From: Candidatus Hermodarchaeota archaeon
GTDB taxonomy: Archaea; Asgardarchaeota; Hermodarchaeia; Hermodarchaeales; Hermodarchaeaceae
Assembly (NCBI GenBank): GCA_016840135.1
Contig: JAEOSX010000007.1
Location: 1-31,732, forward strand
Reading direction: 5' to 3'
Length of the DNA: 31,732 bases
Made by a program: the position numbers and the translations under genes. Shown piece after piece: positions 25,586 through 29,283 of the stretch. Below the pieces are notes generated by a model that had not been told where the DNA came from, searched no databases, and was given only the letters and a program-made list of their open reading frames with translations. Position 1 is the stretch's first letter, and each line of letters starts with the position of its first letter.

Positions 25586-26452
25586 CTAGTCCACTTGCAC
25601 ATCTAGAACTACATGATCATTTTGTGGGTTATATGGCTTGATAATTCGTGCGCTGAGTATTCTCACTTCCCTATCCATTTCCTTCGCAGTATTTTCAATA
25701 ATCTTTGATGCCGCTATAATAGCTCTTGGGCGAGGACAGGTTTCATGAAAATGAAGAACGCCTCCTGGACGCAAACAGGTAATCCCTTTCTCTATGTATC
25801 GTGTAGTTCCTTGAATCAGACCCATTATCACACGGTCAGCTTTACCTTGAGACACCTCGACTGCTAATTTATCGGCATCTCCTTGATGAGGAGTGACGAT
25901 ACCTTTAACCCGATTTTCCTGAATGTTCCGCTCAAGAAAGTGGAATGCCTCTGGGTTCCACTCGATAGCATGAATTAATCGGGGAGAAGCATGAACTGCT
26001 ATCGGAATGGTGAACTGTCCGATACACGCGAACATATCTACAACTAACTCACCAGTTCCTAGTCGGCTCATGCGCTCTCGTTCAGCTTTGTTACCTAGAG
26101 AGAACATCACTTTCATTGGATCAATGTGAAAGATGCATCCATTCTCTGAAAGCATCGTTTCTGTCTCGCTGGAGCCAGCTATCAATTCGAGAGCGGGTTT
26201 TCGGAAGGGCCCTGAAATCGCGTCTGTGCGTCTCAACACTGAGCGTATCCTTGAATCATATTCAAGAACCTTCAGACCAATGACTTCCTTAAAAGAAAGC
26301 GCTTCAGGTTTCAACCAGAGAACCGCAACGTGACCGTAAATACGTAGACGGCGTGGAAGAAGATAATCAGGAATGATATCCCCCAGCTGCTCTTGAAGAA
26401 ACTGAATGAAAGTTCTTCGATGTCTGTGGTAAAGTCTCACCAAAGAAGTCAC
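25586..26452 (-). CDS. trm5: Trm5/Taw2-family (Met-10+) tRNA methyltransferase, probably tRNA (guanine37-N1)
   Basis: VVDMFACIGQFTIPIA SAM-binding motif and the EWNP block. The N-terminus resembles Trm5. GTG start. Confidence 0.7.
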   Translation of the reverse strand: MTSLVRLYHRHRRTFIQFLQEQLGDIIPDYLLPRRLRIYGHVAVLWLKPEALSFKEVIGLKVLEYDSRIRSVLRRTDAISGPFRKPALELIAGSSETETMLSENGCIFHIDPMKVMFSLGNKAERERMSRLGTGELVVDMFACIGQFTIPIAVHASPRLIHAIEWNPEAFHFLERNIQENRVKGIVTPHQGDADKLAVEVSQGKADRVIMGLIQGTTRYIEKGITCLRPGGVLHFHETCPRPRAIIAASKIIENTAKEMDREVRILSARIIKPYNPQNDHVVLDVQVD

Positions 26453-26459
26453 TTCACTA

Positions 26460-26800
26460 GGCTAGTCTGAATGATAATCGAAAGTTGTGGTGGGTCGGCC
26501 TTGCTCTGTTCCTCGAGTACACTAACTCCCCACCGTCCTTGGTGGGCGAAACGCCTTCAACCCTCCGGCAGGTCCTCTCTTGATGTGCCGAGATATATGA
26601 ACTCGACGCGACCCAGCGTTGAGTTGTGGACATTCTGGGTTGCCCCATCATTCACCTCTTGGCGTCACGCCGTTGATCGTGAAGGAGCCTGTCACATGCC
26701 GCATAACCCTCAACTAGCTCCAGTGTCGCCACCATTATGCTCAAGTCTTCATTAGGGTCCATACCTTCAGACCTGACCTCGTAGGTGGCAGTATCCTTTC
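26460..26800 (-). ncRNA. Candidate structured non-coding RNA, class unresolved
   Basis: A gap of about 390 bp between two CDSs is visibly more G+C-rich than its flanks. It holds only low-complexity R/S/W/P-rich ORFs on both strands. Many local stems are present, including (minus sense) UGGG-GCAA-CCCA, AACUCAACGC-UGGGUC-GCGUCGAGUU, CCCACC-AAGGAC-GGUGGG and GGCG-UUU-CGCC. Confidence 0.35.
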
Positions 26801-26817
26801 ATCGCTAAATGAAAGGA
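26794..26817. repeat. Hairpin TCCTTTCAT-CGCTAA-ATGAAAGGA, 30 nt downstream of the PPAT stop
   Basis: Perfect 9-bp stem read directly. It could be a 3'-end element for the PPAT gene or the 5' part of the adjacent RNA candidate. Confidence 0.4.
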
Positions 26818-26847
26818 CTAAATGCCTACACTTAAAGCCTTCCACTA

Positions 26848-27354
26848 TCAGGTGGAGTGGTCGCGATATTCGAGTTGACCATCTCGATCAATAATTCCTG
26901 CTCGGATCCGTGTTGAAGAAATAGTGGTTTTATCCTCTGCTAAAACCATTGTTAGTACTGCTATGTCTAGAATTGGGAGCCCACGTTGTTGCCGAATTTC
27001 GTTGATTTCGATGGCCCTGGAGTAGGTCTCTTCGCTTACAACAATGAGTTGTAGTTTCTCCTCTGTGATTGCTGGTCCATAAGGGTCACATAAGGGTTCG
27101 ATAGTGAAGCGTCCCTTAAAGTTCTCAGATTCCATCCATTGTTTTAGTTTTGCTGCTCTTTCTTCGTAAGGAGTAATTAACTTCCAGTCAGGTTTATGGG
27201 TTATCATTGATTGCGTTGTCAAGCCTATGAGAACATTGTAGCCAAGTTCGAAGGCTTTGCGCAATAGAACCTTGTGTCCTCTGTGAAGTCTGTCAAAGGT
27301 GCCACCTATTGCCACCCAATCGTAACGGTGTTCAGGCACTGAATAACCTCCCAT
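26848..27354 (-). CDS. coaD: Phosphopantetheine adenylyltransferase, archaeal type (cytidylyltransferase fold)
   Basis: VAIGGTFDRLHRGHKVLL (GxFxxxHxGH nucleotidyltransferase motif) and a C-terminal ISSTRIR motif. About 168 aa. Confidence 0.75.
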   Translation of the reverse strand: MGGYSVPEHRYDWVAIGGTFDRLHRGHKVLLRKAFELGYNVLIGLTTQSMITHKPDWKLITPYEERAAKLKQWMESENFKGRFTIEPLCDPYGPAITEEKLQLIVVSEETYSRAIEINEIRQQRGLPILDIAVLTMVLAEDKTTISSTRIRAGIIDRDGQLEYRDHST

Positions 27355-29184: not shown

Positions 29185-29283
29185 TGCGGGGGCCGGGCTT
29201 CGAACCCGGGAACTCCTACGAGACAGGATCTTAAGTCCTGCGCCTTTGACCAGGCTTGGCTATAGGGTCATAGAAACCCCCGC
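29185..29283 (-). tRNA. tRNA-Leu(UAA) with a 14-nt insert at positions 8-10; CCA not encoded
   Basis: GCGGGGG-TT[TCTATGACCCTATA]GCC-AAGCCTGGTCAAA-GGC-G-CAGGA-CTTAAGA-TCCTG-long arm TCTCGTAGGAGTTC-CCGGG-TTCGAAG-CCCGG-CCCCCGC-A. Confidence 0.8.

Follow-up and report, generated by a model that had tools for sequence, protein, structure and literature searches.

The gap between a gene for a PPAT-type cytidylyltransferase-like protein and a Trm5/TYW2 gene, in a stretch of 31,732 nucleotides of Candidatus Hermodarchaeota archaeon DNA (the window), very probably encodes a box H/ACA guide small RNA of about 330 nt, which contains three tandem motifs, belongs to the minus strand, and has its own TATA-type promoter. 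We infer its transcription, its assembly into a ribonucleoprotein, and the modifications that it would guide from conservation, covariation, motif geometry, best-ranked complementarity to rRNA, and the presence of the protein genes, all of which were observed. The assignment would resolve an unannotated RNA of Hermodarchaeota-like genomes as a ribosome-modification guide, and the alignments and models of the RNA could seed an Rfam family.

Locus, strand, and coding potential

The gap between the two minus-strand genes is 395 nt long. The G+C content of positions 26500-26800 is 0.535-0.565, compared with 0.43-0.47 in the flanks. The RNA gene spans positions 26480-26810, approximately, of the minus strand and has the same orientation as both flanking genes. 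The parts of the locus are listed from 5' to 3' on the minus strand, followed by the reading frames that are open in the gap:

26848-27354, minus strand: PPAT-like (cytidylyltransferase-like) gene
26830-26837, minus strand: putative promoter, with TATA-like box CUUUAAGU and, ahead of it, a BRE-like stretch rich in purines
26795-26808, minus strand: 5' leader UUAGC-GAU-GA-AAGG; bulged strand of the putative basal C/D-like K-turn
26728-26789, minus strand: H/ACA motif 1; lower stem GCCACC/GGUGGC; guides UACGAGG (5') and GCAUAAU (3'); upper stem of 8 bp
26768-26767 (GA) and 26753-26749 (AAU-GA), minus strand: K-turn of motif 1
26724-26726, minus strand: ACA box 1, located 14 nt 3' of the first nucleotide of the 3' guide
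26715-26723, minus strand: hinge CUG-GA-GC-UA; non-bulged strand of the basal K-turn, with GAGC invariant across families
26617-26715, minus strand: H/ACA motif 2 with its clamp; outer helix GUUGAG/CUCAAC; lower stem GCGGCAU/AUGUCC; guides GUGACAGGC (5') and (GC)AACCCAGA (3'); upper stem UCCUUCAC/AUGAUGGG
26678-26677 (GA) and 26656-26652 (GGU-GA), minus strand: K-turn of motif 2
26627-26625, minus strand: ACA box of motif 2
26492-26614, minus strand: H/ACA motif 3 with its clamp; outer helix GGGUCG/CGACCC plus GUUC/GAGC; lower stem UCUCGG/UCGAGG; guides ..AAGAGAG(GA) (5') and (GA)GUUAGUGUAC (3'); upper stem CCUGCCG/CGGUGGG; apical hairpin GGCG-UUU-CGCC
26565-26564 (GA) and 26540-26536 (AAG-GA), minus strand: K-turn of motif 3
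26509-26507, minus strand: ACA box of motif 3
26480-26491, minus strand: pyrimidine/T-rich 3' tail ACCACAACUUUC; probable termination region with the putative 3' end
25586-26452, minus strand: Trm5/TYW2 gene
26471-26755, plus strand: open reading frame of 94 aa
26457-26651, minus strand: open reading frame of 64 aa

The TATA-like box precedes the conserved GC-RAU-GA leader by about 29 nt. Its TTTA[AT] core is retained in all eighteen sequences from the same family, with T12-T14 invariant, and A/T-rich boxes are found at an equal distance in four other families. At the opposite end, the sequence CCCAYY followed by a U-rich tract is present in all the families examined. Some G.U pairs, among them 152-221 and 165-207, are invariant in the alignment of eighteen sequences and suit the minus strand only. 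The same positions would form A.C on the opposite strand, and therefore the RNA is encoded by the minus strand. The preliminary description of the DNA had proposed a G+C-richer non-coding block between trm5 and the PPAT gene, which encodes a structured RNA in the minus sense. The base composition, the absence of Pfam matches among the reading frames, the covarying fold of three modules described below, and the strand-specific G.U pairs bear out this proposal.

All the reading frames in the gap are short, and none of them has a match in Pfam. The 94-residue plus-strand frame and the 64-residue minus-strand frame are open; however, the alignment contains 1-nt insertions and deletions between two genera, which a conserved reading frame could not tolerate. 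Substitutions in the helices are compensatory and are not concentrated at third-codon positions. It is therefore extremely improbable that the gap contains a small protein-coding gene. The 1-nt insertions and deletions, together with the many paired substitutions, identify the conserved block as a non-coding element.

A search of Rfam at gathering thresholds found nothing in the gap, whereas it identified SRP RNA, 5S rRNA, and tRNAs in the same window. A tRNA match at window positions 29193-29262 is at the gathering score (29.1 versus 29 bits) and covers model positions 8-63 only. The sole match in the gap obtained in a permissive Rfam scan was to the H/ACA family HgcG/Pab40 (RF00064), which was aligned on the minus strand, in full length and weakly (17.2 bits, E-value 0.013), with positions 26728-26789 aligned to motif 1 of HgcG. 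Because 17.2 bits is below the HgcG gathering score of 77 bits, we classify the RNA as a functional counterpart or distant homologue of HgcG and not as a member of the family as it is now modelled. The weak match is explained by the alignment of the shared guide strings CGAGG and GGGNAACCC.

The preliminary description considered a divergent RNase P RNA because of strings resembling those of RNase P, and suggested comparison with Rfam as a check. That comparison retrieved the sub-threshold HgcG match and no RNaseP_arch match in the region. A divergent RNase P, MRP-like RNA, or other ribozyme would have in its favour the loose string resemblances only, which we consider coincidental. The source genome contains a full-length RNaseP_arch (RF00373) match elsewhere, on contig C197 (G000:C197:12414-12792, 183 bits, E-value 6e-55), whereas the permissive scan gave no RNase P or MRP match in the region at an E-value of 10 or better. 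Furthermore, the RNA is composed of three independent hairpin modules that covary, and it contains no P4-type pseudoknot. The chance that the locus encodes a ribozyme of this kind is therefore minimal.

Conservation and fold of the RNA

Comparison of the gap with 40 related genomes by BLAST identified matches in seventeen of the eighteen other genomes from the same family. Matches within the genus are 88-95% identical to the gap, those from the sister genus 72-78%, and the gene context of the family matches is constant. The only family genome lacking a match, according to both BLAST and covariance model searches, is G010, which is 75% complete; the absence is probably due to an assembly gap rather than to loss of the gene. 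Plain BLAST did not find any matches outside the family among the 40 relatives, and a scan of genome contigs for exact patterns retrieved the same family only, plus chance matches in bacteria. A covariance model of the middle module (motif 2), which was built in a first round (R1) and rebuilt with distant matches in a second round (R2), was used to search 151 sampled Asgard genomes. Full-length homologues of motif 2 were detected in 34 of the 151 genomes, which represent at least eight families. The helix sequences of the distant homologues are wholly different, whereas the pairing is retained; for example, the lower stem of motif 2 is replaced, among others, by CCGCAU/AUGCGG, CCGCAC/GUGCGG, and GUCUAC/GUAGAC. 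Inspection of the flanking sequences showed that the layout of three modules is also present in families f2, f5, f18, f20, and f21. The layout of motif 3 is the same in other families, with different helix sequences.

The fold calculated by RNAalifold from the alignment of eighteen family sequences (A1) and refined by hand contains 78 base pairs in thirteen helices, which form three hairpin modules. Among the eighteen sequences, 94.7% of the alignment cells are paired, compared with 37-47% when the 3' partners are slid by one to three columns. Double-sided changes affect 20 pairs, in contrast to 4-6 in the slid controls, and the covariation score is 0.228, in contrast to 0.05-0.07. In 500 shuffles, the observed values were never reached; the one exception is the number of further pair types, attained in 460 of them. 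The comparative folding with relatives proposed in the preliminary description thus revealed covariation. A wider alignment of motif 2, containing 28 distinct sequences, has double changes in 24 of 31 pairs, including all seven pairs of the outer helix and seven of the nine pairs of the lower stem. In this alignment, which was fitted to the model, 95.1% of the cells are paired versus 33-46% in the slid controls; alignments based on covariance models are biased towards the model's own structure. When the modules of the source genome were folded one at a time, the outer helix and lower stem were recovered in each of them, and the upper stem in the first two; motif 3 of the source genome, when folded alone, adopts a different fold in its inner part.

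Several local pairings can be compared with the consensus fold. The stem GGCG-UUU-CGCC noted in the preliminary description is real and conserved, and forms the apical hairpin of motif 3. Other stems listed there did not survive the comparison. The GNRA-capped stem UGGG-GCAA-CCCA overlaps one strand of the upper stem of motif 2 and the 3' guide (AACCCA), and could at best represent an alternative closed state. The 9-bp stem at positions 26600-26625 is limited to this genus, where the 3' half of the outer helix in motif 2 can pair instead with a downstream stretch, in competition with that conserved helix. Such a pairing could represent an alternative fold peculiar to the genus or a chance complementarity. 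CCCACC/GGUGGG is not the covarying pairing; GGUGGG pairs with CCUGCC in the upper stem of motif 3, and the suggested long-range interaction of CAGGUC with GACCUG is not retained in the sister genus. We also rejected some candidate helices of our own. A GGAGC/GCUCC hairpin with an unclosed terminal ACA was considered for motif 2. However, RNAalifold and the distant homologues support the outer helix and a GGCAU/AUGUC lower stem, and GGAGC is rather the hinge strand of the basal K-turn. In motif 3, the helix CCGACA/UGUCGG has weaker support than the combination of CCCGA/UCGG and CCUGUCG/UGAUGGG.

The linkage of the RNA to the Trm5/TYW2 gene (window positions 25586-26452), which is directly downstream and co-oriented, is retained in four Asgard families (f1, f2, f14, and f20; loci L100, L101, L112, L114, and L116). 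It is possible that the H/ACA RNA and Trm5/TYW2, which both function in RNA modification, are co-transcribed. The position of the RNA directly upstream of Trm5/TYW2 in these families, and the Shine-Dalgarno-like GGUGA that follows the RNA, would also fit a cis-acting 5' leader regulating the downstream gene. However, in families f5, f18, and f21 the neighbours of the RNA are Toprim or HAD-hydrolase genes, with opposite strands in one case, which indicates that it is an independent gene and not a trm5 leader. Furthermore, the RNA has its own TATA-like box and U-rich tail, and every feature conserved in it belongs to H/ACA motifs. We therefore consider regulation in cis very unlikely and interpret the locus as an independent H/ACA guide RNA gene.

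Guide geometry, predicted targets, and related guide RNAs

Each of the three motifs consists of a lower stem, an internal-loop pocket, and an upper stem, and the stems covary; in motif 1, compensatory changes affect three pairs of the lower stem and five pairs of the upper stem. The upper stem of every motif contains a K-turn with tandem G.A pairs and a 3-nt bulge, and the GA dinucleotides are invariant in the family alignment. The length of the so-called GA stem is 10 in motif 1, 10-12 in motif 2, and 9-11 in motif 3, while the published range is 8-11, with productive Pyrococcus folds having the value of 10 (PMC4652768). Motifs 1 and 2 have a distance of 14 nt from the ACA box to the first target-pairing guide nucleotide. 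For motif 3, the register that targets position 1917 likewise gives 14 nt, and the register that targets position 1915 gives 16 nt, extended to 17 nt in the source genome (G000) and in G001, which contain an extra C. The published rule is 14-15(16) nt (PMC2377435; PMC4652768). ACA box 1 is invariant in the family; in other lineages, it is ACA in three families, AAA in f21, and CCA in G022. The box of motif 3 is GCA, and not ACA, in seven of the eighteen family genomes. Genes for Cbf5, Nop10, Gar1, and an L7Ae-family protein, each scoring above the curated cut-offs, are present in the source genome. In contrast to the expected 7-9 bp with a single-stranded ACA, the lower stems are only 5-6 bp long. 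The short stems and enclosed ACA boxes are the main structural departure from known archaeal H/ACA RNAs, which concerns the architecture of the RNA and not its guide function.

Targets were predicted by scanning the sense strands of LSU and SSU rRNA pieces from the source genome and its relatives for bipartite complementarity around a uridine, with the ACA-distance rule applied. All three motifs have such complementarity of the pocket around an unpaired U-N, and in each case the predicted site is the top-ranked one on sense rRNA, with 4+7, 7+7, and 4+12 pairs for motifs 1, 2, and 3, respectively. The best site of motif 1 is the LSU sequence UUGC-UU-CCUCGAU, which forms 4+7 pairs in the sister genus and 3+5 in the source genome. 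The predicted target is the uridine located two nucleotides 5' of CCUCGAUGUCGG in the peptidyl-transferase ring, approximately position 2496 of E. coli, which is equivalent to P. abyssi 2588. The best site of motif 2, CUGGGUU-UA-GACCGUC, forms 7+7 pairs on the source genome's own LSU fragment (CUGGGUU-UA-GACCGUCGU). The uridine following CUGGGUU, between helices 90 and 93, is the predicted target (approximately E. coli 2586, equivalent to P. abyssi 2678 and H. volcanii 2605). Motif 3 is best matched to the loop of helix 69, GUAAC-UAUGA-CUCUCUUAA, in which CUCUCUUAA pairs with UUAAGAGAG, whereas the other strand may pair in two registers, GUUA with UAAC or UAGU with ACUA. The predicted targets are the helix 69 uridines equivalent to E. 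coli 1915/1917. Since UAUG is left unpaired in helix 69, both conserved uridines could be modified in sequence, as they are with sR-h45 of H. volcanii. The E. coli positions are approximate, as their numbering was derived here from sequence context; the offsets between P. abyssi and E. coli agree (2588-2496 = 92 and 2678-2586 = 92).

We propose that each motif would assemble with Cbf5, Nop10, Gar1, and L7Ae. L7Ae would bind to the K-turn of the upper stem, and the PUA domain of Cbf5 to the lower stem and ACA box. The strands of the internal loop would pair with LSU rRNA on both sides of the target uridine, which Cbf5 would isomerise to pseudouridine. Eukaryotic snR30/U17 and snR10 act as rRNA-folding or processing chaperones, and the RNA could similarly have the shape of an H/ACA RNA without guiding modification, either as such a chaperone or as an RNA with decayed guides. 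This alternative could account for the imperfect pairing: the 3' guide of motif 1 forms only three Watson-Crick pairs (GCA) in the source genome and four in most relatives, and the 5' guide of motif 2 has two mismatches to rRNA in its own family, one mismatch in G022, and weaker pairing in G058. The importance of the 3' guide has been stressed in published work. The non-ACA boxes of some genomes point in the same direction, and the clamps could hinder the canonical binding of Cbf5. However, the guide strands are the best conserved parts of the RNA across families, the rule of 14 nt and the spacing of the K-turns are retained, and in Pyrococcus, Archaeoglobus, and Haloferax, homologous motifs are known to guide the three sites. 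Therefore, we consider an RNA without guide function unlikely and a modification guide the preferred interpretation. The ACA box can be dispensable for the typical targets of sR-h45 and is needed in the UNUN case (PMC7075261), which leaves the GCA variants of box 3 unexplained.

The H/ACA sRNAs Pab40, Pf7, and Afu4 contain three motifs, of which motif 1 guides the formation of Psi2588 in P. abyssi 23S rRNA and motif 3 that of Psi2016 in stem-loop 69, while the "true" motif 2 target of Pf7 and Afu4 is the equivalent of P. abyssi U2678 (PMC2377435). Modification of the U2678-equivalent site is known from Haloarcula, Halobacterium, Drosophila, and mouse, and P. abyssi sites 2016 and 2588 are reported to be conserved in eukaryotic large rRNAs (PMC2377435). 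Like these RNAs of Thermococcales and Archaeoglobus (RF00064), the Asgard RNA contains three tandem motifs, K-turns, and ACA boxes, and the same three LSU sites are predicted for it in the same 5'-to-3' order. The 5' guide CGAGG of motif 1 and the 3' guide AACCC of motif 2 are common to HgcG and the Asgard RNA. The two differ in size, since the Asgard RNA has about 330 nt and lower stems of about 6 bp, whereas Pab40, Pf7, and Afu4 have about 230-276 nt and lower stems of 8-10. The comparison indicates that Thermococcales/Archaeoglobus and the Asgard archaea, the closest prokaryotic relatives of eukaryotes, have in common both the trio of LSU sites (two in the peptidyl-transferase ring and one in helix 69) and the combination of the three on a single RNA. 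A novel class of RNA, which the preliminary description had left as an option, is unsupported because the locus has the defining features of a box H/ACA guide sRNA and shares its target set and motif order with Pab40, Pf7, and Afu4.

In H. volcanii, the first stem-loop of sR-h45 targets U2605 between helices 90 and 93, and the second targets U1940/U1942 of helix 69, which requires an unpaired UVUN (PMC7075261). Motifs 2 and 3 of the Asgard RNA have the same targets in the same order as this double stem-loop RNA, and the Asgard target includes the unpaired stretch UAUG(A). According to the description of sR-h45, the Asgard RNA differs from it in the additional 5' motif and the outer clamps, and outside the guides there is no detectable similarity. 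Eukaryotic H/ACA snoRNAs share with the RNA described here the chemistry of Cbf5/dyskerin, Nop10, and Gar1, and conserved target sites. Among the eukaryotic guides for homologous sites are yeast snR191, which guides modification of helix 69, and snR46, which guides that of 25S Psi2865. However, eukaryotic guides have a hairpin-hinge-hairpin-tail organisation with H and ACA boxes and no K-turns, whereas the Asgard RNA contains three motifs, four K-turns, and closed modules. Full-text literature searches for H/ACA guide RNAs in Asgard archaea did not find any paper on the subject.

The rRNA sequences collected for target prediction contain interruptions. The LSU gene of the source genome (C187, L122, minus strand, positions of about 93-140) is interrupted in the peptidyl-transferase region (...GACCGUCGUGAG|AGUGGUUUAGG...). 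Those of G012 and G007 are interrupted just 3' of helix 69 (L107, L108, and L109; ...CUCUCUUAAGGU|GAACAGA...), where G003 is uninterrupted. The LSU interruptions are probably rRNA introns close to the predicted pseudouridylation sites. The Rfam archaeal SSU match of the source genome (G000:C142:2337-5006; L103-L106) is split into four separated pieces over about 2.7 kb, a sign that the 16S gene may contain large insertions or introns.

Outer helices and a putative basal K-turn

Motifs 2 and 3 are each located inside an additional helix of 5-10 bp, the 3' strand of which begins 0-1 nt past the ACA box. The strand facing the ACA within this clamp is 4-7 nt long and is rich in purines or A and U. 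In its own family, motif 3 has two stacked outer helices. The outer helices covary fully among families. Motif 1 is closed in a different manner: the leader, (UA)GC-RAU-GA-NNN, and the hinge that follows ACA box 1, NNN-GA-GC(UA), fit a C/D-type K-turn. It would contain a GC/GC C-stem, which has 3-4 bp in most lineages, a 3-nt bulge, tandem G.A pairs, and an NC stem. The pairing of the leader with the hinge is possible in fifteen genomes from five families, in which the 4b-4n pair is A-U, G-U, or G-C, and the 5b-5n pair is G-C or A-U. At the RNA's 3' end, we found no conserved D box that could be the partner of the C-box-like leader, and its partner is the hinge. A bulge-helix-bulge reading of the clamps, as substrates of the splicing endonuclease, was rejected because the loops are directly opposed and not staggered by 4 bp.

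On balance, we favour the interpretation that the multi-site H/ACA guide of Asgard archaea is built of clamped modules, in which the ACA box is held in the internal loop that separates a short lower stem from a closing helix, with a C/D-like K-turn as the closure of the first module, although the evidence leaves considerable room for doubt. The clamps would stabilise the short lower stems of about 6 bp and let the three modules fold independently. The architecture of clamped modules is not found in the Rfam HgcG consensus or in the published accounts consulted, with the absence of clamps outside Asgard archaea judged from the HgcG consensus alone. This consensus contains plain tandem hairpins with single-stranded ACA boxes, in contrast to the outer helix of each motif and the basal K-turn of the Asgard RNA. 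If the interpretation is correct, each RNA would contain four L7Ae sites, and the recognition of ACA by Cbf5 and the assembly of the ribonucleoprotein, or a step in which the clamps open, would be of a kind undescribed for Euryarchaeota, Crenarchaeota, and eukaryotes. Alternatively, the clamps would be a device for processing or insulation that is peculiar to the lineage closest to eukaryotes. The clamped modules and basal K-turn are testable structural novelties for the assembly of H/ACA ribonucleoproteins.

The RNA of family f14 (L116, G035:C78) contains two motifs only, which are modules 2 and 3 of the U2586 and helix 69 types, and in this respect it parallels sR-h45 of H. volcanii. Each motif of the f14 RNA has an outer helix of 7-10 bp, and the RNA begins immediately downstream of a TATA-like box.
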